Below, piece after piece: positions 32,552 to 52,565 of a DNA stretch of 54,587 nucleotides. How positions within the stretch are numbered: the first letter of the stretch is position 1; every line of letters begins with the position of its first letter. The DNA is from Patescibacteria group bacterium (GTDB lineage: Bacteria; Patescibacteriota; Minisyncoccia; UBA10092). The notes below the pieces were generated by a model. The model saw only the letters and a program-made list of their open reading frames with translations, was not told where the DNA came from and searched no databases. The position numbers and the translations under genes are program-made. The stretch spans positions 1-54,587 of the forward strand of contig JAHJZO010000029.1 of assembly GCA_018826255.1 (NCBI GenBank), in the 5' to 3' direction.

Positions 32552-32575
32552 CCCCCGCAAGCTTGCGGGGGTTTT
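32552..32575 (+). terminator. rho-independent terminator (CCCCGCAAGCTTGCGGGG type)
   Basis: CCCCCGCAAGCTTGCGGGGG followed by TTTT. Confidence 0.8.
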
Positions 32576-35788: not shown

Positions 35789-36676
35789 ATGAAAAGCGAC
35801 AGAAGAAGGCGAAAAATTGTAATATTGGGTCATACAGGTTTTCTGGGAAGTTGTCTTTACGAGAATTTCAGCAAAGAAATTGAGTATGAAGTTTATGGGT
35901 TTTCTTCGGCTAATGTAAATTTATCGTCATCAAAAGAATGCCAAAAATTGTTGAGCGTTATTGATAAAAACAGTACCGTCATAATGACGGCGACATCTCT
36001 GGTTAAGAATAAGGACTTTATTTCCTTCAGGAATGATTTTGACATGTTACTTAATACTGCCGAAGTTTTTTCTTTGGCGGGCATCCAACATTTGATTTAT
36101 ATCAGTTCTATTGCGGTATTTGGCCGTCATTCTGAATCAGTAATAACCGAATCAAGTTATCCGAATCCGGATGACCTTTATAGTTTTTCTAAACTTTTAG
36201 GCGAGCAAATTTTTGAACGTATTTGTCGCAATTCCGGAATTCACCTAACAATTTTACGCCCTGGAACTTTTTATGGCCTCAATGATAAGACGAGTCCCTT
36301 TTTTAGATTCTTGGGAGGCATTAAAAGTAACGGGGAAATTAAAATTTATGGTGATGGTTCTTCAAAACTTTTCTGGGTTCACAAAGTGGACTTGTGTCGC
36401 ATAATCCAAGCGGCTGTCGCGAGTTGCAATCCTGGGATTTATAACATTGTTACAGAGAGCGAAGGTATTTCTTTGTTAAAACTTGCAGAATTGATGTTTC
36501 AAATTTGCGCTCTCGGGCATCGGATTAAGATTGAATTTATTCCAAGCGCAAAAGTTCCCGTTGATTTGCGGTTTGATATATCAAAATCAAAATCCTGTTT
36601 TTCAGGGATAAAACATATTAAATTGGAAGATGGTTTAAAAGAATATCTCAATCAAACTGACAAAAAGGAGGAATAA
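35789..36676 (+). CDS. extended-SDR NDP-sugar reductase/epimerase (RmlD/DmhB-like)
   Basis: ILGHTGFLGSCL, YSFSK. GAGGAG RBS. Confidence 0.6.
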   Translation: MKSDRRRRKIVILGHTGFLGSCLYENFSKEIEYEVYGFSSANVNLSSSKECQKLLSVIDKNSTVIMTATSLVKNKDFISFRNDFDMLLNTAEVFSLAGIQHLIYISSIAVFGRHSESVITESSYPNPDDLYSFSKLLGEQIFERICRNSGIHLTILRPGTFYGLNDKTSPFFRFLGGIKSNGEIKIYGDGSSKLFWVHKVDLCRIIQAAVASCNPGIYNIVTESEGISLLKLAELMFQICALGHRIKIEFIPSAKVPVDLRFDISKSKSCFSGIKHIKLEDGLKEYLNQTDKKEE

Positions 36677-36678
36677 CA

Positions 36679-37332
36679 ATGGCAGAAATAAATTTACTGG
36701 ATACTTACCCCAAAGAAAATCGCGACGTTGAGGGACGATTTAAGCAAATCACGAAAGAACATCACAAAATTGCCCGTCAATTCGGAGAGGAATTTTTTGA
36801 AGGCGACAGATTAGTCGGCTACGGAGGGTATATCTATGACGGCCGGTGGGCGAGCGTAGTTAAAAGATTCAGGGATCACTATGGGCTGACTTCTGAAAGT
36901 AGTGTCCTTGATATAGGTTGCGCCAAGGGATTCATGCTTCATGACTTCCAGCGGATTATTCCCGGCATCAAAGTGGCGGGAATAGATATTTCCGCTTACG
37001 CGATCGCCAACGCCAAAGAAAGCGTTAAAGCGTTCGCGCGGGTAGGCAATGCGAAAGAATTGCCTTTTCCCGATAAATCGTTTGACCTGGTAGTTTCTAT
37101 TACCACACTTCATAATCTGCCTATTAAAGAATGCAAACAGGCGATTCGCGAAGTGCAAAGAGTATCGCGAAAACACGCTTTTATTACTCTTGATTCCTGG
37201 CGCAACGAATACGAATGCGAGAGGATGATAAAGTGGAATTTGACAGCGCTGACCTATATGAGCGTTGAGGACTGGAAGAAATTATTCACCGAAGTCGGTT
37301 ATACCGGTGATTACTACTGGTTTATTCCATAG
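36679..37332 (+). CDS. class I SAM-dependent methyltransferase
   Basis: VLDIGCAKGFML motif I. Confidence 0.75.
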   Translation: MAEINLLDTYPKENRDVEGRFKQITKEHHKIARQFGEEFFEGDRLVGYGGYIYDGRWASVVKRFRDHYGLTSESSVLDIGCAKGFMLHDFQRIIPGIKVAGIDISAYAIANAKESVKAFARVGNAKELPFPDKSFDLVVSITTLHNLPIKECKQAIREVQRVSRKHAFITLDSWRNEYECERMIKWNLTALTYMSVEDWKKLFTEVGYTGDYYWFIP

Positions 37333-37342
37333 AGGTGGCGAA

Positions 37343-38341
37343 ATGAAAACTAAAGCGGCGGTTTTAAGAAATATTGGCGGACCATTGATAATTGAGGAAC
37401 TGGAAATCCCCAAATTGGGATTTGGACAGGTTCTTGTAAAAATACTGTATAGCGGACTTTGCCGAAGCCAGCTAAATGAAATTAAAGGATGGAAGGGCAA
37501 AGACCATATTCCTCACCTTTTGGGTCATGAGGCGTCAGGCGAGGTTCTAGAAATTGGAGATAGCGTTTCTAAAGTCAGGCCTGGCGATTATGTCGTATGC
37601 AGTTGGATAAAGGGCGCGGGATTGGATGTTCCGCTTATCAAATATCGCGCGGGCGATGGCAGTGTTGTAAATGCCGGAGCCGTGGCGACATTTTCCCAAT
37701 ACGCGGTTATTTCAGAAAACCGGCTGGTTCCGGTCTCAAGAAAAATTGGCGGTGAAGTGGCGGCCCTTCTGGGTTGCGCCGTGCCAACGGGCGCCGGCGT
37801 GGTTGATCATTCGGATATCCCGCTTGGATCAAAATTAGCCATATTCGGCATTGGGGGCATCGGCGCCAGCGCTTTATTGAAAGCTCTTTCCCTTAAAATA
37901 AGATGCTTTGCTATTGATGTGGCTCAATGGAAATTAGATTGGGCGGAAAAAATTGGAAGTGTTGCTATTCATTTTGATCATGTTAAAAAATATGCGCCCT
38001 TTGATTCTGCGGTTGAATGCAGCGGTAGCAGAACTGCTATGGAGGCAGCTATTAATCTGACTAAGAGTGATGGCGCAGTGATTGTTGCCGGCAACTTGGA
38101 ACCGGGAGAAAAAATTGCTATTGACCCTTTTGATTTAGTAAAAGGTAAAAGGATAAGCGGTACTTGGGGCGGAGGATGTTTTTTGGATGATGATATCCCG
38201 CGCTATGCTTCCGAATATCTCTTCGGTTATCTGTCACTTGAAAATTTAATAACCCGTATTTATTCTTTTGAAAAGATAAATCTGGGATTAGCAGAATTAA
38301 ATTGTGGTGAATTAATCCGGGGAATTGTAAAAATTTCCTGA
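37343..38341 (+). CDS. zinc-type medium-chain alcohol dehydrogenase/reductase
   Basis: GHEASGEVLEIG zinc motif, GLCRSQ, FGIGGIGASAL Rossmann loop. ATG 37343 chosen inside the track ORF. Confidence 0.8.
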   Translation: MKTKAAVLRNIGGPLIIEELEIPKLGFGQVLVKILYSGLCRSQLNEIKGWKGKDHIPHLLGHEASGEVLEIGDSVSKVRPGDYVVCSWIKGAGLDVPLIKYRAGDGSVVNAGAVATFSQYAVISENRLVPVSRKIGGEVAALLGCAVPTGAGVVDHSDIPLGSKLAIFGIGGIGASALLKALSLKIRCFAIDVAQWKLDWAEKIGSVAIHFDHVKKYAPFDSAVECSGSRTAMEAAINLTKSDGAVIVAGNLEPGEKIAIDPFDLVKGKRISGTWGGGCFLDDDIPRYASEYLFGYLSLENLITRIYSFEKINLGLAELNCGELIRGIVKIS

Positions 38342-38348
38342 AAACAAA

Positions 38349-38370
38349 ATCCCCGCTTAGCGGGGATTTT
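38349..38370. terminator. bidirectional hairpin terminator between convergent genes
   Basis: ATCCCCGC-TTA-GCGGGGAT followed by TTTTT. Confidence 0.7.
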
Positions 38371-38384
38371 TTAATTGATAAAAT

Positions 38385-39722
38385 TTATTTTCCCGCGCCG
38401 GAAAGTAAAATGCGAATTGTTTTTAACATAATTGATAAATCAAGAAACGCCGAACGGTTTTTCAAATAATATAAATCGTATTGGAGTTTTTCCAAGGTTT
38501 CTTTGAAAGTAGGGCCGGCATTAGGATTATGAAGTTGCGCCCAGCCGGCGATTCCCGGTTTTATCAAGTGCCGCATTTCATAAAAAGTAATTTCTTCCGA
38601 TAGTTTTTTTGCAAGCTCCGGTTTTTCCGGCCGCGGGCCGATAAACGACATTTGTCCAAGTAAAATATTCCAAACCTGTGGCAGTTCGTCAATATGAGTT
38701 TTGCGCAAAAATTTACCGACTAATGTAGATTTTTCTTCATATGATGTTCCGGCTTCTCGCGCGCTTGAGCCGCTAATCAATGACCTAAACTTTATTAAAG
38801 TAAATATTTGCCCATTTTTACCCACGCGCTGTTGTCTGTAAAAAACAGCTCCCGGATAAGACACTTCTATGGCTAAAACTACTAAGGGCGATATTATCAA
38901 TGTTATCAACCCAAGTATGATTGAACCGATAATATCAAAAGTTTTTTTTGTCGTTTCATAAAATCCTTTGGTAGATTGTCCGATATTTTCCAAAAACCAG
39001 GCCTCTTGGATAATTGAAATCGGCACACGGTTTGTCGTGGTTTCGTAAAATTTATCCAAATCATTAATGACAACGCCCTTTTTAAAATATTTGAAAAGCA
39101 AATAAGATAATTTTTTTGAATGATCAAACTGTTCGACTGAAACTATTAGTGAAAATTTTTTATCTTGCCAAAGATTTTCTAATTCGGCGGCATTGTCAGG
39201 CGCTAGAATTCCGACAGTTTGATAGCCCAGTTGTGGATTATTGCTCAAAAATTCTTTTAGCTCCATTATTTCTGGGCTGGCGCCAAGAAATGCAATCCCG
39301 ATTTTGAACGCTTTGGTAGCCCACTTATTAAAATATTGCCTCCAAAAATAAAGAATAGCCATGGTTAGGGCCAAATCAATAAACAAATTTATTTTTGGCG
39401 TAATTATAAAATATGGTATAAAATAAAAGAAAGAAACAGCAATTGCCGCGTTAACGCCAAAAGTAATAATGAGATTTTTGTAAAACAACCCTTCATTTTT
39501 AAGTTTTGACAAATCATAAAGACCCGCAGCCCAAAAAACGATTAGCCAGAGCGCGAATATTATGCTAAAAGGGACAAGATGGAGGGGGATGGAATTTTTG
39601 AGAACAATATAATCACGATTGATTAATGCGTAGCGGATAATGAGAGTCAGCCCTAAAGCCGCATAAAATATTACAACATCGCTCAAGACCAATAAAGATA
39701 CTTTTAGTTGTTTACGCCACAT
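38385..39722 (-). CDS. polyprenyl-phosphate sugar-phosphate transferase (WbaP/EpsB-type initiating enzyme)
   Basis: RQQRVGKNGQIFTLIKFRS and DELPQVWNILLGQMSFIGPRPE bacterial sugar transferase motifs, with N-terminal TM segments. Confidence 0.9.
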   Translation of the reverse strand: MWRKQLKVSLLVLSDVVIFYAALGLTLIIRYALINRDYIVLKNSIPLHLVPFSIIFALWLIVFWAAGLYDLSKLKNEGLFYKNLIITFGVNAAIAVSFFYFIPYFIITPKINLFIDLALTMAILYFWRQYFNKWATKAFKIGIAFLGASPEIMELKEFLSNNPQLGYQTVGILAPDNAAELENLWQDKKFSLIVSVEQFDHSKKLSYLLFKYFKKGVVINDLDKFYETTTNRVPISIIQEAWFLENIGQSTKGFYETTKKTFDIIGSIILGLITLIISPLVVLAIEVSYPGAVFYRQQRVGKNGQIFTLIKFRSLISGSSAREAGTSYEEKSTLVGKFLRKTHIDELPQVWNILLGQMSFIGPRPEKPELAKKLSEEITFYEMRHLIKPGIAGWAQLHNPNAGPTFKETLEKLQYDLYYLKNRSAFLDLSIMLKTIRILLSGAGK

Positions 39723-39725
39723 ATT

Positions 39726-41978
39726 ATGAATTCTAGCATACTATTAAAACTTATAAAATTCGGAATCGGTTTTATCCTATTTATCCCGCTTTACATCGGC
39801 GGTTCTTTTTTCTTTCCTTTTATTTTCCCGAAAATATGGCTTTTTCAATTGGTTACCGAAATTATTTTATTCCTTTATATTATTTTGGCGCTTACGGACG
39901 CGCGTTTTAGGCCAAAATGGAATTTAGCGCTTGGCGCGACAATGTTGCTTACAATAATTTTAATAATCACAAGTTTTACGGGAGTTGACGCTTTCAGGAG
40001 TTTTTGGGGCAATACCGAAAGAATGTCCGGCATAATTACGTGGTTTCACTTTGTGATTTTTGCCATAATTTTGTCCAGCGTTTTAACGACCGAAAAAGAA
40101 TGGCGAAAATTTTTTGGTATAGCGGTTATTGTCAGTGTTTTGGAATTCTTTTATACTCTGGCCCAATATTTTAACGCTTCTTGGGCATGGCTTCCATCAA
40201 GCCAGTCCGGGACGATTGGCAATGCCGATCTTTTGGGAAGTTACGCAATCTTTGGCGCCTTTTTCGCGCTTTATTTGTGGAAAAACTCAAAATCCGATTT
40301 CAAGTATTTTTGGGCAACCGCTTTTTTTCTTAATATCGGCACTCTTTACATAGCAAGCAGCCGAGGCGCCATTATTGGGTTTGTTATCGGGATTATTGCT
40401 TATATGCTTCTTAATATCGCTGATAATCGTGATCTCTGGAAAAAGTGGGCGATTATAGCAGCTATCCCGCTTTTAATCTATGGCTTTTTATGGACAATCA
40501 GAAGTTCCGATTTTATTAACAATAGCGTCCAACTTACCCGGTTAACAAATATTTCCTTGAAAGGCGATACGATTCAGCAACGTTTCACAGAATGGGGGAT
40601 TGCTTGGGACGCATTTTTGGCGCGCCCAATTTTCGGTTTTGGGCCTAATAATTATTTGTATCTTCACAATGCCTTTCTTGATCCAAGGGTTTACGAGCTT
40701 CGCGAAACCAACTTTGATCGCGCTCACAATGCCTATTTGGACTATGCCTCAATGAGCGGAATTTTAGGTCTCTTGGGTTATCTATTTTTGATCGGCGCTT
40801 TATTTTGGGTGTTTGTAAAGAATAAATTATGGATTCCTGCGTCATTAATGGTCGCTTATGCGGTGCAGAGTTTTTTTGTTTTTGATAGCCCAGCAAGTTA
40901 TATTGCGCTTTTTTTGACGATTGGATTTGCCATCTATAAAACTGGAAATTCCAATGACCAAATCCCAAGTTCTCATAAAGATCTCCCGAAGGGAGACAAG
41001 CAAATCCCAAATCCCAAATCTCTAAATTCCCAAACTATTATCGCTCTCTCTCTTGCCGCCTGCATCTTGTCGTTTTATATATTTTGGCAAGTGAGTGTTA
41101 AGCCGGCGGTAGCGAACAACGATTTTGTGAACGCTTTTAATAATCCGTCGCTTGGCGCCGAAGAATCGTTTAATCTGTATAAAAAGGCCGTGGCTCAAGA
41201 AACTCTTGGCACTACGGAATTTCGCAATCAGTATAATCCTTGGCTTCAGAAAAATTTGAACAATTTTAAACCGGAAGAACGTATTACAGTATTAGATTTT
41301 GGTATTAACGAGCTTGAAAAAGAAGTTAAAACTCATCCCATGGTTTTTAGTTATTTAAATCTCGGCCAAATTTATAATTATAAGGCGAGAGGATTTCAGG
41401 ACGAATCGGTGCGGATGGCCTTTTTTGAAAAAGCGGCAAGCGCTTACGATGAAGCCCTGAAACTTTCTCCAAACCGGTTGGAGGTCTTTTATTCTTATTT
41501 ACAACTATCTTTTGACGCTAAAAAATACGATAAAGGCGCAGAGTTGATGGAGCAGGTCGCTTCTCGCGCTCCTAATTATTGGCAAACCCATTGGTATCTC
41601 GGTTTTGCCTATACTATGGCGGGAAAAGATGAAGAAGCGGCGAAGGCGCTGAATAAAGCATTGGCAATTTTCTATAATCACAGCGGCGTGATTATAGAAA
41701 ATGGCAGATTAAAGTATGATTATGACAAAGCTCTAAATTTTGCGCTCGGTTTTGCGCCGAAGCAAGAAATTTTGGGAGCGGTGAATCCCTATATATGGCT
41801 AAAAATGTGGCCAGAACTTTTATTGCTTTATTTATCGGCCGAAAAAGGCGATCCCGAGGATATTCAACTGCACCAATCGCTCGCGCTGGTATACCAAAAT
41901 CTCGGCTTAAACGACAAAGCCAACGAAGAATTAAAAATTGTAAGGGCTTTGTCTGAAAATCAGAGCAGAAGCGAATGA
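39726..41978 (+). CDS. O-antigen ligase/polymerase-like (Wzy_C) membrane protein with C-terminal TPR repeats
   Basis: SSRGAIIGFVIG...FGFGPNNY...AHNAYLDYASMSGILGL. C-terminal TPR-like helical repeats. Confidence 0.8.
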   Translation: MNSSILLKLIKFGIGFILFIPLYIGGSFFFPFIFPKIWLFQLVTEIILFLYIILALTDARFRPKWNLALGATMLLTIILIITSFTGVDAFRSFWGNTERMSGIITWFHFVIFAIILSSVLTTEKEWRKFFGIAVIVSVLEFFYTLAQYFNASWAWLPSSQSGTIGNADLLGSYAIFGAFFALYLWKNSKSDFKYFWATAFFLNIGTLYIASSRGAIIGFVIGIIAYMLLNIADNRDLWKKWAIIAAIPLLIYGFLWTIRSSDFINNSVQLTRLTNISLKGDTIQQRFTEWGIAWDAFLARPIFGFGPNNYLYLHNAFLDPRVYELRETNFDRAHNAYLDYASMSGILGLLGYLFLIGALFWVFVKNKLWIPASLMVAYAVQSFFVFDSPASYIALFLTIGFAIYKTGNSNDQIPSSHKDLPKGDKQIPNPKSLNSQTIIALSLAACILSFYIFWQVSVKPAVANNDFVNAFNNPSLGAEESFNLYKKAVAQETLGTTEFRNQYNPWLQKNLNNFKPEERITVLDFGINELEKEVKTHPMVFSYLNLGQIYNYKARGFQDESVRMAFFEKAASAYDEALKLSPNRLEVFYSYLQLSFDAKKYDKGAELMEQVASRAPNYWQTHWYLGFAYTMAGKDEEAAKALNKALAIFYNHSGVIIENGRLKYDYDKALNFALGFAPKQEILGAVNPYIWLKMWPELLLLYLSAEKGDPEDIQLHQSLALVYQNLGLNDKANEELKIVRALSENQSRSE
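40971..40999. repeat. in-frame GC-rich hairpin module (TCTCCC-GAA-GGGAGA) within the ligase gene
   Basis: Exact 21-mer AGATCTCCCGAAGGGAGACAA (40979-40999) is shared with gap (48640-48660). Flanked by CAAATCCCAA direct repeats at 40959-40968 and 41001-41010. Confidence 0.85.
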
Positions 41979-41997
41979 TTTTTAAAAACAAAACCTT

Positions 41998-42015
41998 ATC
42001 CCGCCGCGGCGGGAT
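41998..42015 (+). terminator. weak hairpin terminator
   Basis: Perfect palindrome ATCCCGCCGCGGCGGGAT. The T-run is displaced (GCTCAGTTTT). Confidence 0.4.
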
Positions 42016-42066
42016 GCTCAGTTTTATTGCTAAATTGTATCATTTCATGATAAAATTTAGATAAAA

Positions 42067-42897
42067 ATGGCAAAGTTCAGAATAGTTTTTGGATTTATTT
42101 TATTGATTTTATTTTTTGTCGCGTTATTTGTCGGCTTGCCTTATCTTTTTCAAATACTGAAAACAAGTTCAATAACAAACTCCCCCCGGTTTATGTTTTC
42201 ATCCACTTCCACTGTGCCGTGGAATTTTAGTTATTTTTATAGTCAGCCAATGAGTTCAACATATCAATATCAACAAAATCAACAATATCAACAAAAAGTA
42301 AGAATCGGAAGCATTTCCAGTTATGGCGCCACCCAAATTAGTTTACAATCCGCATCTTATGAAAGTCCGGTAAATATTACCGGCTGGAGAATTAAAAGCG
42401 CTCAAAAAGGCGAGACTCTTATAGGCAAAGGAATCAATCTGGTTCAATTTGATTCAGTTTCTTCCGATGTCTGGCTTAATGGCGGCGAATCGGCCGACAT
42501 TATCGCCGGTGTGAGCCCGATGGCTGCCAATTTCAGGGTTAATATTTGTTTTGGAGGAATAAATAACCTGTATAATCTTGGTTACGCGTCCTGTCCGGCG
42601 ATGGCAATGTATGATCTGACAGGCCTTGATAGTTCCTGCCAGGATTTGATATTGCGAAGCAGCTCGTGCCAAGCTCCGAGCGATAATATATTAAACGGGC
42701 AAACCTCCAAGTGCCGAATATGGTTTGAAAAAAATGTCAATTACAATGCCTGTGTTAATCAATACCGCAACAGCCGCGATTTTTATAGGGGATGGAAAAT
42801 TTATACCGGCAACAGTAATCAGATTTTTGACCCGCTTCATGATAAAATTGAACTTCGCGATCAAGCCGGGCGATTAATCGACAGCCGCCAGTATTAG
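42067..42897 (+). CDS. membrane-anchored, Cys-rich hypothetical protein with possible lamin-tail (LTD)-like fold
   Basis: N-terminal TM helix. VRIGSIS...VNITGWRIKS...HDKIELRDQAGRLIDSRQY resembles the LTD pattern. Eight Cys in the insert. Confidence 0.35.
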   Translation: MAKFRIVFGFILLILFFVALFVGLPYLFQILKTSSITNSPRFMFSSTSTVPWNFSYFYSQPMSSTYQYQQNQQYQQKVRIGSISSYGATQISLQSASYESPVNITGWRIKSAQKGETLIGKGINLVQFDSVSSDVWLNGGESADIIAGVSPMAANFRVNICFGGINNLYNLGYASCPAMAMYDLTGLDSSCQDLILRSSSCQAPSDNILNGQTSKCRIWFEKNVNYNACVNQYRNSRDFYRGWKIYTGNSNQIFDPLHDKIELRDQAGRLIDSRQY

Positions 42898-42914
42898 TTA
42901 TCCACATATTTACA

Positions 42915-42942
42915 TAGACAAGCACAATTATAGGTATATAAT
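42915..42942 (+). promoter_or_regulatory. sigma70-like promoter for the surface-protein gene
   Basis: TAGACA (42915-42920), 16 nt, TATAAT (42937-42942). Confidence 0.5.
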
Positions 42943-43010
42943 CAATGATAGAAGTGCATAAACTGCATGATTTGGCGGTTTTTATAATTAACTTGGTTAA
43001 AATAAATAAA

Positions 43011-44957
43011 ATGTCACGAAAATATTTTATAATTCTTGGGCTGTTTTTAGCCGTGAGTGTTTTTGTTTCCAGTGCCGGTATTGTAGGGGCCTATACTACT
43101 ACTGCCGTATGGACCGGCGGTGGCGATGGAGTGACATGGACTGATCCCGGTAACTGGGGGAATACGAGCAGTAACGCTTATCCTGGCGCTTCTACGACTG
43201 ATGCGGTGTTAATTTCCACGCAGACGCCGACGGGCGATATTATTGTCAGGGCTACATCTACGCTTCCCGGTTCGTTAAGTACATTAACGCTTGGCGCGGC
43301 GAATACCGGCGGCCCGACTCTTATTTTGGGCAATGGAGCCACAATTTCCGCCAGTACCTCAGTCATTCTCGTTAGTACTAGCACGCTTAAACTAGGCGAT
43401 AGCACTTGGGGTAGCGGCAATTTAACTTTTGCCAATGGCAATGATAGCGCCATACCGTTTAGATTTGGCACTACCACAACTGCTTTTACAGCTGCGACAG
43501 GCACAGTTACATTTACCGGCACAGGCAGCAATATTGTTATAGCGACAACTACTTACTATAATCTCAATTTAACTCCAACATCTACTGCCACAACCGTTAC
43601 TTATAAATTTGGCGCCGATAGTTTTTCCTGTACATCTGGCGGTTGTACTGCCACTACTACTGTGTCTAATGTTCTTACTGTTAGTCCTGGCGCTCGCGCT
43701 AATTTTAACAGTACGACTCTTATTTTGTCGGGTTCTGGAACAGTATTTTCAAAAGCCAATGGCACATTTATTGCCAATGGCTCGGTAATTCAATATACCT
43801 CCGCTTCAGCCACCAATATTGCTACCGGCACTTATGACAACCTTAATATCAGCGGAGCGGCTACCAAGACCCTACTGGGCAACACGACCGCGACCAGTAC
43901 AGTAACAGTTGCTTCCGGCTCAACATTGGCAATAAGTACTTATACATTCACCGCTACCGGTTCTACTTGGACCAATAGTGGAACGGTTACCGAAGGAACA
44001 GGTGGTAAAATAACTTTAGCTTCAGCCACCACGTTAGCCGACAGTGCCGGCACCAGTAAATCGTCATTTGATGGCGACGCTCGGGATAGCGTTTATTTCA
44101 AGGTAACCGATACAAGTTTAAACCTTTTAGCTGCAACGGCTGAAACTTTAACATGTACAATTAGAGCAGTTAGTGGCATTAGCGATACTGAAACAGTTAC
44201 TCTCACTGAAACAGGCGTTGCCACAGGCATCTTTTCGGGTGGCGTTACTTTTGGTATGTCAGGCACAGATGTTGCCAGCCAGCTTGATTATCAGGGAGGA
44301 GGCACTTTGACCGTCACTTGGGTTGACAAACAAGATTCTGATGATACGGGCACCGGCAAGACAGGTACATTTACCGGCACTGCCCCGGGAGGTGGCGGTA
44401 GCAGCGGTTCTGTAGCGACAACTGCGACGACCGCGACAACTGCGACGACAGCTACCACCGATACAACGACAGCTACCACTGACACAACAACTACTACTAC
44501 CGACACAACTACAACAACAGCGACTCCGGCAGTTACGACTGGCCCGACGCTTGATAGTATTCAAACAAAAATTGCGGCCGCGGTGGCCAGTATATCCGCT
44601 CTTCCGGCAAACCCATCAGCTGCTGATTTAACCGCTGTTCAAGCTCAAATCGCCGCTATTTTGGCTGATATTCAGGCACTTCAGGGGACAACGCAAGGCG
44701 CGGCTCTCGGACTTAACTTCACTACACCGCTGTCCTATGGCATAACAAATAGCAGTGTGACGGATCTTCAAAATGCCCTTAAAACCGATTCGTCGGTTTA
44801 TCCTGAAGGATTGGTAACCGGTTACTTTGGTCCAATGACTTTGAGGGCAGTTCAGAAATTCCAAGAAAAATATGGTATTGCCGCGAGTGGTGAACCCGGC
44901 TATGGTTATGTCGGTCCGAAAACCAGGACGAAACTGAACGAACTTTACGGTCAATAA
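43011..44957 (+). CDS. secreted Thr/Gly/Ser-rich surface protein with C-terminal peptidoglycan-binding (PG_binding_1-like) domain
   Basis: Signal peptide MSRKYFIILGLFLAVSVFVSSAGIVGA. Poly-Thr linker. C-terminal LQNALK...GYFGPMTLRAVQKFQEKYGI. Confidence 0.7.
   Translation: MSRKYFIILGLFLAVSVFVSSAGIVGAYTTTAVWTGGGDGVTWTDPGNWGNTSSNAYPGASTTDAVLISTQTPTGDIIVRATSTLPGSLSTLTLGAANTGGPTLILGNGATISASTSVILVSTSTLKLGDSTWGSGNLTFANGNDSAIPFRFGTTTTAFTAATGTVTFTGTGSNIVIATTTYYNLNLTPTSTATTVTYKFGADSFSCTSGGCTATTTVSNVLTVSPGARANFNSTTLILSGSGTVFSKANGTFIANGSVIQYTSASATNIATGTYDNLNISGAATKTLLGNTTATSTVTVASGSTLAISTYTFTATGSTWTNSGTVTEGTGGKITLASATTLADSAGTSKSSFDGDARDSVYFKVTDTSLNLLAATAETLTCTIRAVSGISDTETVTLTETGVATGIFSGGVTFGMSGTDVASQLDYQGGGTLTVTWVDKQDSDDTGTGKTGTFTGTAPGGGGSSGSVATTATTATTATTATTDTTTATTDTTTTTTDTTTTTATPAVTTGPTLDSIQTKIAAAVASISALPANPSAADLTAVQAQIAAILADIQALQGTTQGAALGLNFTTPLSYGITNSSVTDLQNALKTDSSVYPEGLVTGYFGPMTLRAVQKFQEKYGIAASGEPGYGYVGPKTRTKLNELYGQ
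44415..44520 (+). repeat. imperfect tandem ACN/GCN codon repeats encoding the TTATTATTATTATTDTTTATTDTTTTTTDTTTTT linker
   Basis: Read directly: GCGACAACTGCGACGACC... and GATACAACGACAGCTACCACT units. Confidence 0.8.
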
Positions 44958-44973
44958 AGAGAAATGACTAAAA

Positions 44974-45006
44974 CCTCCCCCGCAAGCTTGCGGGGGAGGT
45001 TTTTTT
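44974..45006 (+). terminator. strong rho-independent terminator (CCCCGCAAGCTTGCGGGG type)
   Basis: CCTCCCCCGCAAGCTTGCGGGGGAGG followed by TTTTTTT. Confidence 0.85.
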
Positions 45007-45016
45007 GTTACCCTAT

Positions 45017-45046
45017 TTGACAGATTGCGTTCTACCCGTATAGAAT
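45017..45046 (+). promoter_or_regulatory. near-consensus sigma70-like promoter upstream of the truncated dehydrogenase ORF
   Basis: TTGACA (45017-45022), 18 nt, TAGAAT (45041-45046). Confidence 0.5.
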
Positions 45047-45055
45047 GCGTAAAAT

Positions 45056-45691
45056 TTGATTTTTAACAATTCGACAGAAAGAGAGGTTGCTATAGTCGAT
45101 GAGGCCATCGGCTATGTTCGGGATTACAAAATTGTGATCATCAAATCAACCGTTATCCCGGGTACAACCGATGCGCTTCAGATTAAATATTCTCAGCACA
45201 AAATTTTATTTTGTCCGGAGTTTTTAACCGAAAAAACAGCACATGAAAATTTTCAAAACCCCAAAATTAAAATTGTTGGTGATACGCTAAAAAGTAATTC
45301 AGTCGCTCTTGCGGTGCGCGGGCTTCTACCCGAGGCGAAGTTTAATGCGATTATGCCGGCAATGGCCGCTGAACTTTTTAAGTATTTTAGAAACAGTTAT
45401 CTGGCAACAAAAAATTCGTTTTTCAACCAGATTTATGATTTGTGCCAAATAACCGGCATTAACTATTCTTTCATAAAAGATTGCGCCGAAGCGGATCCGT
45501 GGATTGGGCCGGAACATCTCGACCCATGGCATGGCGGTTTTCGCGGTTTCAATGGAAAGTGTTTGCCGAAAGATACGGAAGCTCTGCTGAAATTTGCCGA
45601 TGGATACGGTATAGATATTAGTGTTTTAAGAGAAGTTGTGAAATACAACTCTTTACTTCTTGAGTCGCAAAACATTAAAAAAGACAGTTAA
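45056..45691 (+). pseudogene. UDP-glucose/GDP-mannose dehydrogenase-family fragment lacking the N-terminal Rossmann start and the C-terminal UDP-binding domain
   Basis: IIKSTVIPGTT, FCPEFLTEKTA and FNGKCLPKD (catalytic Cys) align to about residues 90-295 of E. coli Ugd. No GxGxxG. Only a TTG start and no RBS. Confidence 0.55.
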
Positions 45692-45698
45692 TTCTAAA

Positions 45699-45726
45699 CC
45701 CTCGCAAATGCGAGGGGTGTTTTTTT
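45699..45726 (+). terminator. rho-independent terminator
   Basis: CCCTCGC-AAAT-GCGAGGG followed by GTGTTTTTTT. Confidence 0.7.
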
Positions 45727-45742
45727 GTGTTAGATAAATGTT

Positions 45743-46482
45743 ATAATGTTAGAAGCTCGGTTTCTAACATTATAAATCTATCATTAACAAATTATCGTCT
45801 GAATATTCTTTGGATTGTTTGGCGATACTAGTTTCTACAAAATTTTTATATTCATTTCCAGTAGAAAATTGTTGAATAATAATATTTCGCTTTAACAATC
45901 CATTCCATCTATTTTCTTTTGAGCAATCTTGATAGCTCGACCATGGATAGGCAAGTTCCTTATTTTTCCATTTAGGTATTTCTCTTGGATTGCGATGAAT
46001 ATAGGTAGATAAATACAAAAGCTGATTATTGTTTTCAACATTTACCGCTTTATATGGGCCTTGAAACAAGTGTCCGGTCTTTTTATATTTTGTATTAAAA
46101 TACTTAGTGTAAGCGCAGAGAACTCTTTGCATATACTTAGCTATGCCGTCTTCTTTCACTTCGCGCACAATAGCATGAAAATGATTTGGCATCATGACAA
46201 AATTTACCAACTCCACATACCTTTCTCTCAGTACTTGTTGTACCGTTTCTTCCACTATGTTAAAAGCTCGGTTTTTAACATAGTGTGATGTTTGACGACC
46301 CAAATTATAAAAAACTATCGGAGACTGAAGATAAATAATTAAAAACAAAAATCTAATCCTATCTTTTTCGTCTAAAAATAGCGGCTGTTTATTGTTGCCT
46401 CTGTTAAAAATATGATAATGTTCGCCCGGAGCGATAATAGTTTTTCTCATAATATAATAATGTTAGAAGCTCGGTTTCTAAC
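45743..46482 (-). mobile_element. complete IS200-like / RAYT unit: Y1 transposase gene flanked by identical 26-nt hairpin-containing repeats
   Basis: ATAATGTTAGAAGCTCGGTTTCTAAC occurs at 45743-45768 and 46457-46482 in the same orientation, bracketing CDS 45770..46450. Confidence 0.75.
45770..46450 (-). CDS. IS200/IS605-family Y1 (HUH) transposase / RAYT-like
   Basis: PNHFHAIV (HUH) and YIHRNP (catalytic Tyr). 226 aa. Confidence 0.85.
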   Translation of the reverse strand: MRKTIIAPGEHYHIFNRGNNKQPLFLDEKDRIRFLFLIIYLQSPIVFYNLGRQTSHYVKNRAFNIVEETVQQVLRERYVELVNFVMMPNHFHAIVREVKEDGIAKYMQRVLCAYTKYFNTKYKKTGHLFQGPYKAVNVENNNQLLYLSTYIHRNPREIPKWKNKELAYPWSSYQDCSKENRWNGLLKRNIIIQQFSTGNEYKNFVETSIAKQSKEYSDDNLLMIDL

Positions 46483-46571
46483 CGCCAATGATAGAATAAC
46501 AGATAATAGATATAATAGGTAGGACTAGGTTTTAATGTTTAGGAGGCGGATTGCTTTTTTTATTTTTTCGA

Positions 46572-46590
46572 ATTACAATTGTATTGTAAT
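46572..46590. promoter_or_regulatory. perfect 8-3-8 inverted repeat (candidate operator) upstream of the dsbA-grx-trxB cluster
   Basis: ATTACAAT-TGT-ATTGTAAT, ending 19 nt before ATG 46609. Confidence 0.35.
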
Positions 46591-46608
46591 AGTAAAATAA
46601 CAAAAAAC

Positions 46609-47283
46609 ATGGAAGAACAAAGCAACAAGTTTTTAATACCGGTGGCGATTGGTTTTGCGGGGATAGTAATTGCCATTGCCGTGATTTATTCCGCTCAGAA
46701 TCCTTCTCCGAACGCGGGAAAAAATAATGAAAGAACAGCTGCTCTGGCGGCTTTGCCTGCCGTTTCTTCAAGCGATTTTGTTTTGGGAGATCAAAACGCG
46801 CCGGTGACCGTAATAGAATATGGAGATTTCCAATGCCCGTTCTGCAGCAAGTTTTTTGAAGATACCGAATCAACACTCCGGGAAAAATATATCAAGACGG
46901 GAAAAGTTAAGTTTATCTATCGCGATTTCGCCTTTTTGGGCGATGAATCGTTTTGGGCCGCCAATGCGGCCCGCTGCGCCGGAGAACAGGGGCAATTTTG
47001 GCAGTATCACGATTATCTCTACAGCAATCAAAGCGGCGAGAATCAGGGTGTTTTCAGCAAGAGTAATTTGAAAAGTTTCGCGGCGGTGTTAGGGCTTGTT
47101 CAGGAAAAATTCGATTCTTGTCTTGATTCCGATAAATACGCGGCCGCTATTCAGAAAGAAACCAAGGAAGGCGGCGAAGCCGGAGTTTCCGGGGTACCGG
47201 CTACTTTTATCAACGGAACGCTTTATAACGCTTCGCCATCCAGCGCGTTTATACAAATCATTGATAATGAGTTAAGTAAGTGA
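46609..47283 (+). CDS. membrane-anchored DsbA-family thiol:disulfide oxidoreductase
   Basis: N-terminal TM helix. DFQCPFCSKF CxxC motif. AARCAGEQGQFW is typical of the family. Confidence 0.8.
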   Translation: MEEQSNKFLIPVAIGFAGIVIAIAVIYSAQNPSPNAGKNNERTAALAALPAVSSSDFVLGDQNAPVTVIEYGDFQCPFCSKFFEDTESTLREKYIKTGKVKFIYRDFAFLGDESFWAANAARCAGEQGQFWQYHDYLYSNQSGENQGVFSKSNLKSFAAVLGLVQEKFDSCLDSDKYAAAIQKETKEGGEAGVSGVPATFINGTLYNASPSSAFIQIIDNELSK

Positions 47284-47507: not shown

Positions 47508-48463
47508 TTTATGACACAATAATTATTGGCGGAGGGCCTGCCGGCGTGGCGGCCGGTGTTTATTCTGCTCGTAAAAAATTAAAAACATTAATTATAACAG
47601 AAAGTTTTGGCGGGCAATCAACGGTTGCCGAGAATATCGAAAATTGGATTGGCGCCAAAAAAATTTCCGGCATTGAATTTGCTAAGATGCTTGAGGAGCA
47701 TATTAGAGCGCAAGAAAATGTTGAAATAAAAATGCCGGAGAACGTAGTTGACATTAAAGAGTTGCCGGGTGACCCGACTGCGCGGGCAGGCTGGGAAGTC
47801 ACAACCGATAAAAATAATTCTTATCAAGCCAGGACTTTAATTGTCACTTCCGGGGGCCGCCGCCGCCGTCTTAATGTTCCGGGCGAGGATAAGTTTAAAG
47901 GCAAGGGGGTTGCTTATTGTTCAACTTGCGACGCTCCGGTTTTTAAAAACAAATCAGTTGCGGTTATCGGCGGCGGCGACACCGGTCTGGAAGCAGCGAT
48001 TGACTTAGCGCAATATGCCGCCAGGGTTTATTTAATAAGCAACAAAGAATCGCTTGTTGGCGACCTTTCAATTCAGGAAATGGTTAAAAATTCTGAAAAG
48101 ATAACTGTTATAGAAAACGCGAATGTTCAAGAAATCTTAGGCGATAAATTTGTTTCCGGCCTCAAGTATTTTGATAAAAACGACAATCAAATTAAAGATT
48201 TAGATGTTGAAGGAATTTTTGTTGAAATTGGATCAACGGCAAATTCAGAATTTATTAAAAAATTAGTGAATACCAATCAAAAAGGAGAAATTATCATTGA
48301 CCATAAGACCGGCGCAACGTCTCGTCCCGGAATTTTTGCGGCCGGCTTCATAACCGACGAAATTTACAAACAAAACAACATTTCTGCCGGGGATGGTGTC
48401 ACGGCCGCCCTTTCGGTGTATAATTATTTGATAAATAATAAAACATGGCAAAAACAAAAATAG
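47504..48463 (+). CDS. trxB: thioredoxin-disulfide reductase
   Basis: IIIGGGPAGVAAGVY FAD motif, CSTCDAPVF redox-active disulfide, VIGGGDTGLEAA NADPH motif. Confidence 0.9.
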   Translation: MIYDTIIIGGGPAGVAAGVYSARKKLKTLIITESFGGQSTVAENIENWIGAKKISGIEFAKMLEEHIRAQENVEIKMPENVVDIKELPGDPTARAGWEVTTDKNNSYQARTLIVTSGGRRRRLNVPGEDKFKGKGVAYCSTCDAPVFKNKSVAVIGGGDTGLEAAIDLAQYAARVYLISNKESLVGDLSIQEMVKNSEKITVIENANVQEILGDKFVSGLKYFDKNDNQIKDLDVEGIFVEIGSTANSEFIKKLVNTNQKGEIIIDHKTGATSRPGIFAAGFITDEIYKQNNISAGDGVTAALSVYNYLINNKTWQKQK

Positions 48464-49500
48464 CGATTAATGGTTTTGGACGGATAGGGCGCATTTTTTT
48501 CCGCCACGCGTTTGAATGCCCTGACGTGGAAATTGTCGCGGTTAACGACCTGACGGAGCCTGAAAATATGGCTTATCTTTTAAAATACGACACGGTTTAT
48601 GGTCCCTATGACAAAAATGTCAAATGTTCTCCCTATGGGAGATCTCCCGAAGGGAGACAAATGTCAAATGTCAAAAATATTTTGGTGGTAGATGGAAAAA
48701 AAATCAGGATACTACAGGAAAAGGACCCTTCAAAACTTCCTTGGAAAGAACTGGGTGTCGATATTGTCGTTGAATCAACCGGTGTTTTTGAGTCAAACGA
48801 GAAAGCGGCGGCGCATTTAACTGCCGGCGCCAAAAGAGTAGTTATTTCCGCTCCCGCGAAAGATGAAATAACTCCAACTGCTACTCCGAATGTCGGAGAA
48901 GAATTTTTAAAAAACGGCAAAATAACCTCTAATGGCTCTTGCACTACCAATGCGGCAACACCAGTGATGGCGGTGATGTCTGAAAATCCCGGAATTAAAA
49001 AAGCCGTTTTAAGCACTGTGCGCGCGTATACCGCATCTCAGGGATTGATTGATGGTTCGGATAAAAAAAATGACTACAGAAGGGCCCGAGCGGCGGCGCA
49101 AAATATTGTTCCTTCAACATCCGGAGTTGCTACGGCGGCTATAAAAGCGTTTCCGTCGCTGAATGGAAAGTTTATCGGCATTGCTTTAAGAGTGCCGATA
49201 ATTTGCGGTTCTATCATTGATTTTACTTTTATCGCTAATCGTTCTACTACGGCTGAAGAAATTAATTTTATTTTCAAAAAAGCGGCGGCCGAAAAACAAT
49301 GGAAAGGAATTTTAACAGTTACCGAAGAGCCGTTAGTTTCAAGCGATATTCTTAAAAATTACCATGGCTCTATCGTGGATCTTTCTATGACAAAAGTTGT
49401 TGACGGGGATTTAGTTAAAGTTTTGTCATGGTACGACAATGAATGGGGGTACGCTTCAATGTTGCTTAAGCATGTTTTGGCGGTAAGTAAATTATTATGA
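48445..49500 (+). CDS. gap: glyceraldehyde-3-phosphate dehydrogenase (type I) carrying a short in-frame insert
   Basis: INGFGRIGRIF. SCTTNA catalytic Cys. WYDNEWGY near the C-terminus. Confidence 0.9.
   Translation: MAKTKIAINGFGRIGRIFFRHAFECPDVEIVAVNDLTEPENMAYLLKYDTVYGPYDKNVKCSPYGRSPEGRQMSNVKNILVVDGKKIRILQEKDPSKLPWKELGVDIVVESTGVFESNEKAAAHLTAGAKRVVISAPAKDEITPTATPNVGEEFLKNGKITSNGSCTTNAATPVMAVMSENPGIKKAVLSTVRAYTASQGLIDGSDKKNDYRRARAAAQNIVPSTSGVATAAIKAFPSLNGKFIGIALRVPIICGSIIDFTFIANRSTTAEEINFIFKKAAAEKQWKGILTVTEEPLVSSDILKNYHGSIVDLSMTKVVDGDLVKVLSWYDNEWGYASMLLKHVLAVSKLL
48628..48660. repeat. two tandem 15-nt hairpin units (TCTCCC-TAT-GGGAGA, TCTCCC-GAA-GGGAGA) in frame within gap
   Basis: Units at 48628-48642 and 48643-48657. 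12-nt direct repeat AATGTCAAATGT at 48616-48627 and 48660-48671. Confidence 0.85.
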
Positions 49501-50108: not shown

Positions 50109-50551
50109 TTTACATTGGCGCTGACCACAGGGGCTATAGTTTAAAAGAAGCTATTAAAGGTTATTTATCCGCCCAAGGCGGACCAGCCGCAGGCTGGAAA
50201 GATCTTGGAGCTTTTAAGTATGACCCAGATGACGATTATCCGGATTACGCCTTGGCGGTTGCCCGAAAAGTTGCTGAAGATTCGGAAAACAGCCGCGGAA
50301 TTTTAATTTGCGGTTCAGGCGTCGGCGTTGATATTGTCGCCAATAAAATAAAGAATATTCGTTCGGCGCTTTGTTTTGACGCTAAGCAAGCGCAAGCTGG
50401 TCGCAACGATGACAACACAAACGTCTTGTCGCTTCCGGCAGATTATATTTCCGAAGATTTAGCCAAGGAAATTACCAAAGTATGGCTCGAAACGCCGTTT
50501 TCCGGAGAAGAAAATCACACAAGAAGAATTGAGAAAATTAAAAAGATTTAA
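50105..50551 (+). CDS. rpiB: ribose-5-phosphate isomerase B (RpiB/LacAB family)
   Basis: GADHRG, ILICGSGVGVDIVANK, NDDNTNVLSLP. Confidence 0.85.
   Translation: MIYIGADHRGYSLKEAIKGYLSAQGGPAAGWKDLGAFKYDPDDDYPDYALAVARKVAEDSENSRGILICGSGVGVDIVANKIKNIRSALCFDAKQAQAGRNDDNTNVLSLPADYISEDLAKEITKVWLETPFSGEENHTRRIEKIKKI
50166..50196. repeat. two 15-nt hairpin units in frame within rpiB
   Basis: TATCCGCC-CAA-GGCGGACC (50166-50184), then CAGCC-GCA-GGCTG (50184-50196). Encodes SAQGGPAAG. Confidence 0.8.
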
Positions 50552-51197: not shown

Positions 51198-52565
51198 ATG
51201 AATGGACAGAATGGGCATAATGGAAAAAATATATCCGCCACAGGCGGACCCGCCACAGGCGGACCCGCCTCTGGCGGGGAACCAAAAAAGTTTTTGTTTA
51301 TCTCATTGGAAAGTTTAAGCGGCGATCTTGCGTGGCAGTTGACCAAAGAAGGCCACAAAGTTAAAGCTTACATAAAAGATAAAGGTGATGCCGATGTTTA
51401 TGATGGTTTTATAGAAAAAGTTGATAATTGGGAATCGCACAAAGATTGGGCGGATGTGATTGTTTTTGACGATGTGGAATTTGGAGAAATTGCCGACAAA
51501 TTAAGAAAAAATGGCAAGTTAGTTATTGGCGGCAGTAAATATACCGATGAATTGGAAATGGATAGGGATTTTGGCCAAGGCGAAATGAAAAAATATGGAG
51601 TTAATACTCTGCCTCAGTGGCAATTTTCCAGCTACGATGGAGCCATTGAATTTATTGAAAAAAATCCCGAAAGATATGTTTTTAAACCCAGTGGGAATAC
51701 TCCATCCGCTGGTAAAGGTCTTTTGTTTCTGGGCCAAGAGGAAGATGGAAAGGATTTGCTTGAGCTTTTGAAACAGAACAAAAATTTATGGACTAAAAAA
51801 GTTCCGGTTTTTCAACTTCAAAAATTCGTTTCTGGAGTTGAAGTGGCAGTCGGCGCGTTTTTCAACGGCAAAGATTTTATTTTGCCGATAAATGTCAATT
51901 TTGAACACAAAAGAGTTTTCCCCGGCGACATTGGTCCATTTACCGGCGAAATGGGTACTCTGATGTTTTGGAGCGAGCCCAACAAGTTATTTCATATGAC
52001 TCTTGAGAAAATGAAACCGGCTTTGGTGGAATCCGGCTATATCGGTTATATCGACATAAATTGCATTGTCAATGGCAAGGGGATATATCCTCTGGAATTT
52101 ACGGCGCGTTTTGGCTATCCGACTATTCAGATTCAATCTGAAGGAATAACAATGCCTACGGGCGAATGGCTTTATAAATTGGCGAGCGGAGAGAGTTTTG
52201 AATTGAAAACCAAAAAAGGTTTTCAGGTCGGGGTGAGAGTTAATGTCCCCACACTTTTTGTAAAATCCACGGACAAAGAAACCATTGAAATGTATCGGGA
52301 TCTGCCGATTCTTTTTAAGAAACCGGATAATTTAGACGGAATTCACATTGAAGATGTTAAAAAAGAAGATGGCTCATGGCGAGTTGCCGGCGTATCTGGT
52401 TGCTTAATGGTCGTTACCGGTTCTGGCACCACTGTTAACGAAGCGAGACAGCAGGTTTATTCCAGAATAAAGAACATAATGGTTCAGGATATGTTTTATC
52501 GAACTGATATCGGGCTGAAATGGAACACCGATAGCGACAAGCTCCAAACTTGGGGTTATTTATGA
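51198..52565 (+). CDS. PurD-like ATP-grasp protein (phosphoribosylamine-glycine ligase-like) with repeat-built N-terminal extension
   Basis: LAWQL and EHKRVFPGDIGPFTGEMG resemble the PurD motifs ALAWKL and DHKR...GPNTGGMG. Confidence 0.6.
   Translation: MNGQNGHNGKNISATGGPATGGPASGGEPKKFLFISLESLSGDLAWQLTKEGHKVKAYIKDKGDADVYDGFIEKVDNWESHKDWADVIVFDDVEFGEIADKLRKNGKLVIGGSKYTDELEMDRDFGQGEMKKYGVNTLPQWQFSSYDGAIEFIEKNPERYVFKPSGNTPSAGKGLLFLGQEEDGKDLLELLKQNKNLWTKKVPVFQLQKFVSGVEVAVGAFFNGKDFILPINVNFEHKRVFPGDIGPFTGEMGTLMFWSEPNKLFHMTLEKMKPALVESGYIGYIDINCIVNGKGIYPLEFTARFGYPTIQIQSEGITMPTGEWLYKLASGESFELKTKKGFQVGVRVNVPTLFVKSTDKETIEMYRDLPILFKKPDNLDGIHIEDVKKEDGSWRVAGVSGCLMVVTGSGTTVNEARQQVYSRIKNIMVQDMFYRTDIGLKWNTDSDKLQTWGYL
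51232..51279. repeat. three tandem 15-nt hairpin units in frame at the 5' end of the ATP-grasp gene
   Basis: CCGCCACAGGCGGAC x2 then CCGCCTCTGGCGGGG. The first unit, TATCCGCC-ACA-GGCGGACC, matches the rpiB unit arms exactly. Confidence 0.85.

Follow-up and report, generated by a model that had tools for sequence, protein, structure and literature searches.

The stretch of DNA analyzed here (the window) comprises 54,587 nt of contig JAHJZO010000029.1, from a Patescibacteria group bacterium, and carries two copies of a hairpin element of 24 and 30 nt, each lying in frame within a protein gene. One host is an O-antigen-ligase-like gene (the ligase gene below) and the other is gap, which encodes glyceraldehyde-3-phosphate dehydrogenase (GAPDH). 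A sequence-only reading of the window had singled out both sites because they share an exact 21-mer, AGATCTCCCGAAGGGAGACAA, and had likened them to the palindromic elements that insert in frame into Rickettsia genes. The 21-mer is present at 40979-40999 and 48640-48660, both on the plus strand, and no further match occurs in the window with up to three mismatches allowed, nor in 100 dinucleotide shuffles. The G+C content of the window ranges from 0.33 to 0.46.

The hairpin TCTCCC-GAA-GGGAGA, noticed in that reading, is common to the two copies. The shared core of the element is 18 nt, as the final CAA of the 21-mer is the target, already there in the empty alleles of a close relative, L228 (comparisons drew on species representatives and 8-kb stretches; L numbers denote loci and P numbers protein relatives). 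Before the shared hairpin the gap copy has a complete first unit (TCTCCCTATGGGAGA, 48628-48642), in place of which TCATAAAGA stands in the ligase copy (Table 1). This segment had been described as a degenerate second unit; it does precede the hairpin, but decay in place is ruled out, since the 24-nt short form was inserted as such and recurs at about seven other sites, in metagenomes and in L052. The direct repeats CAAATCCCAA at 40959-40968 and 41001-41010, offset by 42 nt, were found as reported and form part of a CAAATCC array. Reading frames differ between the hosts (KDLPKGDKQ in the open reading frame [ORF] at 39708-41978, GRSPEGRQ in gap), in keeping with the earlier view that the likeness is at the DNA level.

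Table 1. Hairpin elements, targets, repeat arrays, and host genes in the window
Feature	Position	Strand	Remarks
24-nt short-form element	40973..40996	+	TCATAAAGA + TCTCCC-GAA-GGGAGA; block TCATAAAGATCTCCCGAAGGGAGA; encodes (S)HKDLPKGD
30-nt double hairpin in gap	48628..48657	+	TCTCCC-TAT-GGGAGA then TCTCCC-GAA-GGGAGA; encodes SPYGRSPEGR
CAA target triplet 3' of ligase copy	40997..40999	+	Present in L228 empty allele
CAA target triplet 3' of gap copy	48658..48660	+	Present in L228 and L055 empty alleles
CAAATCC 7-nt tandem array, 4.6 copies	41001..41034	+	Tandem Repeats Finder; further unit at 40959-40968; same in L228
AAATGTC/CAAATGT 7-nt tandem array	48613..48675	+	Tandem Repeats Finder; interrupted by gap copy; equal unit number in element-free L228 and L055
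Host gene 1: Wzy_C (O-antigen-ligase-like) + TPR protein	39708..41978	+	Pfam annotation of orthologues
Host gene 2: type I glyceraldehyde-3-phosphate dehydrogenase (gap)	48445..49500	+	
Sister class, double hairpin in rpiB	50168..50197	+	TCCGCC-CAA-GGCGGA then CCAGCC-GCA-GGCTGG (TCCGCCCAAGGCGGA CCAGCCGCAGGCTGG)
Sister class, three tandem 15-nt hairpins (TCCGCC/CCCGCC stems)	51234..51278	+	In frame, PurD N-terminus, SATGGPATGGPASGG

The ligase structure model has a predicted local distance difference test (pLDDT) score of 87, and its sole stretch below 50, residues 410-429, contains the insert. This disordered loop of the model separates the last Wzy_C helix from the helix that runs toward the TPR part, which is where the sequence-only reading had proposed to look for the insert. 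The GAPDH insert appears as a 14-residue gap against the solved structure 1hdg and extends a beta-hairpin turn, falling between strands 59-63 and 78-82 of a model that is poor overall (pLDDT 59) and of which only the N-terminal part was used, together with the 1hdg alignment.

Empty sites and independent insertions in orthologues

Three relatives were fetched for empty-site comparison, among them L228, which has 93-97% DNA identity across window positions 36664-50813 (about 14 kb), and L055, which is syntenic, has a 78% identical GAPDH, and served as outgroup. At the gap site L228 reads AAATGT^CAAATGT, without an element and with flanks 97% identical, and L055 reads GACAAAAATGTCAAATGT^CAAATGTCAAATGTCAAAAATG, which matches the window but for exactly 30 nt that the window has in addition. 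At the ligase site L228 reads AAGTTC^CAAGCAAATCCC, again element free, in surrounding DNA that is 94% identical, and the ligase orthologue P0121 (95% amino acid identity) likewise has no insert. Around both sites the sole differences between L228 and the window are the 30-nt block and the 24-nt block, and because the outgroup L055 is empty, the state in the window is a gain. Not one base has been duplicated or lost between filled and empty alleles, and the 7-nt arrays are equal in both. The two copies in the window result from recent and precise insertion of a mobile DNA element of very small size. The exact empty alleles rule out target-site duplication, which the flanking repeats had seemed to suggest: the insert adds 24 or 30 nt only, and the repeats pre-exist in L228. 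At this size the element would be about the smallest mobile one known to us; it is active on a time scale of 3% genome divergence, and its copies can be used as strain-level markers.

Over the 14 kb shared with L228 there are three hairpin indels in genes, two of them filled in the window and one in L228. A majority of 120 GAPDH relatives have a short loop and a total length of 336-337 aa, and one clade has the 7-nt array alone, without the element (NVKCQMSNVK). P0005 carries a different element one base away, with all four arms changed in concert (TCACCC/GGGTGA), and P0008, P0016, and P0036 have other hairpin-derived inserts in the same loop. Independent inserts also occupy the ligase linker in about ten other orthologues, including P0135, P0140, P0146, P0160, P0176, P0179, and P0199; these encode SPFGGSPEGRQ, HPTGDHPKGD, or EISRRET or consist of other G+C-rich hairpins. 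In a second ligase loop, L055 has its own TCTCCC-family copy, CAAGCTT[TCCCCCTACGGGGGATCTCCCGAAGGGAGA]CAAGCTC. This loop, which follows LYLW, exists in three states: the TCTCCC-family copy in L055, nothing in the window, and a different hairpin in L228. At about 4250-4300 of L228, a 47-nt perfect hairpin, ATATCGATATCCGACATC-aaagttccccc-GATGTCGGATATCGATAT, is inserted in frame in the ligase gene and is unrelated to the TCTCCC element.

These comparisons bear on two explanations that would require no mobility. Under the first, selection has maintained an ancestral signal of benefit to the host, which could be an uptake sequence, a regulatory hairpin in RNA, or a site bound by a protein. Conservation of an exact 18- to 21-mer across classes of the candidate phyla radiation (CPR), with stem pairing kept, is what such a signal would give; yet a 97% identical relative lacks the element at both window sites, its occurrence among orthologues is patchy, the same loops carry different stem families, and it sits at arbitrary places in unrelated genes and in all three frames, while two copies in 54.6 kb are too sparse for an uptake sequence. 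We therefore regard such a signal as very improbable, although individual copies may have a secondary function. The second is an assembly, adapter, or chimera artefact, to which the restriction-site-like palindromes at the center of the element (AGATCT, GGATCC) might be thought to point. Against this, the copies occur in assemblies from many unrelated projects and assemblers, are taxon restricted, show compensatory variation, and always lie in frame in ORFs, and the same filled gap allele was found again in an independent data set (P0001), which leaves such an origin with a negligible probability. Empty alleles and the spread across independent assemblies thus exclude both an ancestral site and an artefact. 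The sequence-only reading had offered insertion over ancestral sequence, and the pattern that would have spoken for the latter, an absence of further copies together with filled sites in relatives, is the reverse of what was found.

Module structure, target, and reading frame

The unit of the element is a 15-nt hairpin with a 6-bp G+C-rich stem (TCNNCC/GGNNGA) and a 3-nt loop, and usually two units stand in tandem. Forms of 30 nt (two modules), 24 nt (the short form), 31 nt (in which a bulge interrupts the first hairpin), and 45 nt (three modules) were found, as were tandem arrays of the element with a period of 37 in L008. A pattern that ignores the loops yielded 69 dimers; their first loop is TNC (in most cases TAC or TGC) and their second GNA (in most cases GAA), which makes the 30-mer as a whole almost palindromic about a central GATC. 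C-GNA-G is a very stable DNA triloop. In 57 copies chosen by the second hairpin alone, pair 7-15 of the first hairpin is CG in 35, GC in 11, AU in 4, and GU in 2. Compensatory stem changes give 19 double-change cells against 5.5 in shuffles, and 0 of 500 shuffles reach the observed score. Two hairpins or one long hairpin can form, in DNA or RNA alike; because compensatory changes keep the stem pairing, a folded single strand matters, and most simply this is DNA.

Exact empty sites of four kinds (gap, ligase, and the anticodon loop and D-loop of tRNA-Cys) all read N^CAA(A/G), with insertion directly 5' of CAA. Unbiased samples are enriched for TTG on the left and for CAA, GAA, or AAA on the right, and in the dimer-pattern sample, oriented by its GAA loop, CAA stands on the 3' side of roughly half of the copies. 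Junctions of the 24-nt form are ^GAA, ^CAA, and ^AAA, a looser target of VAA. The element itself starts with TC(T/C/A) and finishes with (A/G)GA, between flanks of TTG and CAA.

The element is stop free in the frames used, and all three are used (SPxGRSPxGR, LPxGDLPxGD, and SLREISRRE). Inside long ORFs lie 49 of 92 30-nt copies versus 0 of 15 31-nt copies (Fisher p = 4e-5), from which it follows that genic copies are read through and filtered for frame. Tolerance of the element in genes is explained by its lengths of 24, 30, and 45 nt, all multiples of three, by the lack of stops, and by the placement of its peptides in surface or linker loops. It is translated through and lands in such loops; its removal from the mRNA by splicing, which was considered, is unlikely given that ORF copies have multiple-of-three lengths only. 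The element thereby provides a route to loop insertions in the proteins of reduced, fast-evolving bacteria and may account for some unexplained short inserts in CPR proteins, and gene callers and alignments should expect hairpin blocks.

The two 7-nt stretches that directly flank the element agree at six or more of seven positions in 22 of 102 TCTCCC-family copies (9 of them perfectly), against 0.27% in controls, and in 8 of 123 copies of a sister family with TCCGCC stems described below. The match is seen at length 7 only, in exact register, and lag-7 periodicity is raised in the flanks. Copies with such repeats are not depleted in ORFs and are, if anything, commoner there; because of this, because empty alleles have the repeats, and because 30 + 7 nt would break the frame, they are not insertion duplications. 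As a separate observation, A-rich arrays of 7-nt period (CAATTTT, CAAATGT, GAAACTG, and others) flank elements in many loci, L039, L077, L022, L014, L313, and L317 among them. Array-flanked elements sit exactly at a unit junction, and arrays of this type also occur in coding loops without an element.

Spread without a dedicated enzyme, by gene conversion at ectopic sites or by template switching during replication, with A-rich 7-nt microsatellites flanking donor and recipient, would agree with the excess of 7-nt flank matches and the raised lag-7 periodicity, with arrays that pre-exist in empty alleles, and with exact insertion. We nevertheless consider it quite unlikely. The 7-mers differ within one genome (CAAATGT versus CAAATCC, with about 5 nt shared), some 70% of copies lack such repeats, including all tRNA-Cys sites and the RelA site, and neither the identical core across classes nor the constant link to a nuclease cassette, described in the next section, would be explained.

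A different enzyme that might move the element, as single-stranded DNA, is an HUH tyrosine (Y1) transposase of the IS200/IS605 or REP-associated tyrosine transposase (RAYT) type, REP standing for repetitive extragenic palindrome. The lack of target duplication, a short one-sided target (^CAA, or a position 3' of TTG when read on the other strand), and hairpins conserved in structure would all fit, and the window encodes a RAYT-like protein (45770-46450, minus strand) with HFH and YIHRNP motifs, a Pfam Y1_Tnp match at 3.9e-10, and REP-associated tyrosine transposase as its best NCBIfam match, albeit with a score of 41.8 that is below the cut-off of 80. The gene is also itself an insertion relative to L055. 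On the other hand, hairpins of a different kind (GTTAGAA..TTCTAAC, TTGGAAG..CTTCCAA) stand on either side of this gene and of its homologues in L013, L035, and L143; of about 225 loci with the element, only 3 have such a homologue; element orientation shows no significant bias relative to GC skew (45 of 79, p = 0.26); and, unlike at IS200/IS605 ends, no spacer separates the hairpin foot from the junction. A Y1 enzyme as the mover is accordingly unlikely, and a link between the element and the RAYT-like gene of the window was rejected on account of the different flanking hairpins and the rarity of homologues near the element.

In its own right, the RAYT-like gene has hairpins on both sides (45745-45771 and 46459-46482; GTTAGAA-gctcgg-TTTCTAAC) and is present in L228 and absent from the syntenic spot in L055, which makes it a mobile insertion. 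A diverged second RAYT-like copy, partial, lies at 1-420, with a hairpin at 424-450.

Distribution and the tRNA-Cys/GIY-YIG cassette

The search for further copies that the sequence-only reading had proposed found many in species-representative genomes. We counted 54 stretches with the exact 21-mer, where our estimate of chance matches is about 0.3, and 68 with the dimer pattern. Exact copies are present in more than 100 genomes, nearly all of them CPR by record title, the source of all taxon names here, some of which may be wrong. Hosts include Saccharibacteria and Nomura-, Wolfe-, Yanofsky-, Doudna-, Shapiro-, Ames-, Azam-, and Berkelbacteria, among others; a few records are labelled non-CPR, and one match, in Kineococcus, looks like chance. 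Recognizable housekeeping genes make up 19 of the 20 host ORFs scanned with Pfam, which confirmed GyrA, SecA, RelA/SpoT, IF-2, TsaD (twice), three kinds of aminoacyl-tRNA synthetase, Pol I, PolX, UvrC, UvrD, PPDK, and AsnB. In the RelA/SpoT synthetase domain, the element occupies the same codon (VFC^K, DNA TTTTG^CAA) in loci of two classes, one from Spechtbacteria (L007, about 5351-5380) and one from Saccharibacteria (L040, about 2494-2523), which suggests recurrent insertion into the same target. The GyrA host gene (L033, 2177-6223) additionally carries a LAGLIDADG-containing intein.

The sister family, whose stems are TCCGCC/GGCGGA and whose center is GGATCC, was found in more than 120 stretches among the matches listed, from CPR, Omnitrophota, Kiritimatiellae, Lentisphaerae, Ignavibacteria, Planctomycetes, Chloroflexota, and Bacteroidota, with 69 of 126 copies in long ORFs (SAxGGSAxGG). 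Copies of the TCTCCC family are nearly all from CPR, but the sister family extends the phenomenon to many phyla. Two copies of the sister class lie in the window. Its three purD hairpins (TCCGCCACAGGCGGA CCCGCCACAGGCGGA CCCGCCTCTGGCGGG) add 15 aa that the orthologues in L055 and L057 lack, with a DNA fold z-score of -5.7. The rpiB double hairpin adds a net 3 aa relative to L055 and L057 (YLSAQGGPAAGWKD versus YLQELN-YNWED in relatives) and is also present in L228.

Transport by phages was considered as well and was dropped after a 17-mer scan of viral contigs yielded just five single-hairpin matches, in G+C-rich phages and compatible with chance. Rfam matched only tRNAs in 10 loci and nothing in the window, and it has no family for the element. 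In the literature that could be searched, text, sequence strings, and peptide strings gave no description of the element, which is apparently an undescribed, very small kind of jumping DNA.

A recurrent setting of the element is a tRNA-Cys gene. In seven loci (L004, L021, L037, L038, L051, L054, and L063) it splits a 5' tRNA-Cys fragment at G34^C35, and after about 10 nt come an 80-aa GIY-YIG ORF and then an intact tRNA-Cys. Lacking a stop codon of its own, the ORF continues into the tRNA and terminates at the D-loop TAA. L051 equals its relative L023 plus this cassette at G34^C35, with the element bounding both sides. In the first loci collected, 8 of 8 GIY-YIG genes of this subfamily were within about 110 nt of a hairpin unit.

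With a profile built from the cassette nucleases, species representatives gave at least 575 related stretches, of which the best 80 were fetched and the 58 CPR loci among them examined. An intact tRNA-Cys directly follows the ORF in 53 of these 58 and a tRNA-Ser in 3, and hairpins, counted by eye, are present in the upstream tRNA fragment in about 52. A scan for perfect 6-3-6 stems flagged 55 of the 80 loci (28 with dimers, 27 with single hairpins). Cassette hairpins sit at CTG^CAAAAC in the anticodon loop, at AGC^CAAGTGG in the D-loop, or at both, and several loci have nested hairpin insertions. Stems are diverse yet paired (TCTCCC, TCCCCC, TCTGCC, TCTCGC, TCTGGC, TCCCGC, and TGTCCC), and in a relative from Omnitrophota the corresponding position is occupied by hairpins of the TCCGCC type. 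The association of the element family with the nuclease cassette is fixed. As to the surroundings of this CPR-wide module (L229-L286; L021, 1500-1900; L051, 2830-3340; L054, 235-830), a tRNA-Leu(TAA) usually follows the intact tRNA-Cys, and some cassette loci have serial partial tRNA copies, each with a hairpin block.

The best explanation, to which we assign a probability of about 70%, is a selfish, recently active element of hairpin modules that inserts at ^CAA and has the tRNA-Cys/GIY-YIG cassette as its home. We infer that the GIY-YIG nuclease moves it. The family would reside in the cassette of tRNA-Cys 5' fragment, hairpins, 80-aa ORF, and intact tRNA-Cys; the nuclease would cut ^CAA sites, the same junction in the tRNA-Cys loops and at dispersed copies; and repair of the break would copy a hairpin block from an existing copy by way of short flanking matches. 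On this model, solo copies would derive from the cassette and be non-autonomous. The duplication-free, frame-keeping ^CAA insertion and the minimal GIY-YIG partner make the mechanism of insertion directly testable.

Several points weigh against this explanation. The 54.6-kb window contains no GIY-YIG gene of this subfamily, the 80-aa domain has no obvious DNA-binding part, and no activity is known for it. Among about a dozen genomes with both solo and cassette copies, stems show no clear match except for TCTGGC in LCKC01, and with this one clear case only, a stem match within genomes was dropped as evidence. The near-universal occupancy of the tRNA fragment could reflect a neutral sink with two ^CAA targets. 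Landing at the junctions of 7-nt arrays is not accounted for by a nuclease, and with no significant replication-strand bias, the data speak neither for nor against single-strand targeting at replication forks.

More tentatively, hairpin block and 80-aa GIY-YIG nuclease may together represent a new class of transposable element, with an autonomous tRNA-Cys form that includes a replacement tRNA part, a ^CAA-cutting nuclease, and 24- to 31-nt derivatives copied into breaks genome-wide. If so, essential CPR proteins would continually gain loops rich in G, P, S, and R, and other stem families would have the same effect in Omnitrophota, Ignavibacteria, Planctomycetes, and others.

Comparison with known elements

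Rickettsia palindromic elements (RPEs) are selfish palindromic repeats found in frame in unrelated, often essential genes and translated as surface peptides (PMC10969869). The proposed kinship with them holds for a palindromic repeat that is in frame in protein genes, with empty sites in orthologues, and translated; it fails for the duplication-like flanks. RPEs are also about 100-150 bp long with a conserved peptide of 30-50 aa, some five times the size of the inserts here, and they form ten sequence families limited to Rickettsia, whereas our element consists of 15-nt modules found across CPR classes, with a sister family elsewhere. A tie to a tRNA-Cys/GIY-YIG cassette further separates the element from RPEs as described, and all hosts found for it are CPR or other uncultured phyla.

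Mitochondrial double-hairpin elements (DHEs) and the GC clusters of yeast mitochondria are short, G+C-rich, potentially mobile sequences of A+T-rich compact genomes; nearly every base is conserved from one species to another, and now and then one lies within an rRNA or protein gene (PMC10085805, PMC4478555, PMC2800124). Like a DHE, the element pairs two adjacent G+C-rich hairpins in an A+T-rich genome. DHEs of fungal mitochondria and yeast GC clusters are organellar sequences that lie for the most part between genes and measure about 35-45 nt or more, whereas the element resides in genomes with bacterial gene content and has about half of its copies in ORFs; GC clusters also have AG target duplications, in contrast to the duplication-free ^CAA target here. 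Paquin et al. (1994, 2000) are said to have described Allomyces DHEs beside a mobile endonuclease ORF that duplicated part of atp6, an arrangement parallel to that of tRNA-Cys fragment, hairpins, and GIY-YIG ORF.

Bacterial REPs are extragenic and have a GTAG or CGTC tag (PMC3733652). REPs and REPINs resemble the element in being palindromic, 20-40 nt long, and frequently arranged as doublets; their stems are conserved in structure, and their insertion duplicates no target. They differ in that 49 of 92 30-nt copies of the element are in long ORFs and in that the element starts with TC and has no such tag; moreover, a RAYT gene is normally flanked by its cognate REPs, and the RAYT-like gene of the window is flanked by other hairpins. 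Elements derived from IS200/IS605 have hairpin ends and insert beside a short specific sequence without duplication. The lack of duplication at four kinds of empty site is shared with them and sets the element apart from classical, DDE-derived miniature inverted-repeat transposable elements. IS200/IS605 derivatives have distinct left and right ends, a guide, and a linker and measure about 100 nt or more, whereas here two 15-nt hairpins abut.

Free-standing GIY-YIG homing genes, such as the seg genes of phage T4 in tRNA regions, offer a further parallel, in that a small ORF has inserted at a tRNA gene, next to a second, incomplete copy of the target. This arrangement was seen in the related loci (L004, L021, L051, L054, and L229-L286). 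Unlike homing genes, the ORF here is about 80 aa, lacks a separate DNA-binding domain, has its stop codon inside the tRNA, and is accompanied by a hairpin block. Homing endonuclease genes are not known to have dispersed copies made of hairpins alone.

Elsewhere in the window, a 20-nt palindrome, CCCCCGCAAGCTTGCGGGGG, occurs at 28238-28257, 32552-32571, and 44977-44996, two occurrences being identical and one 90% so. Each lies just past the end of an ORF and is followed by a run of T, which looks like a terminator-like repeat family. Two ORFs of about 800 aa, at 13137-15596 and 16457-18856, are paralogues with blocks of 85-89% identical DNA near their 3' ends.

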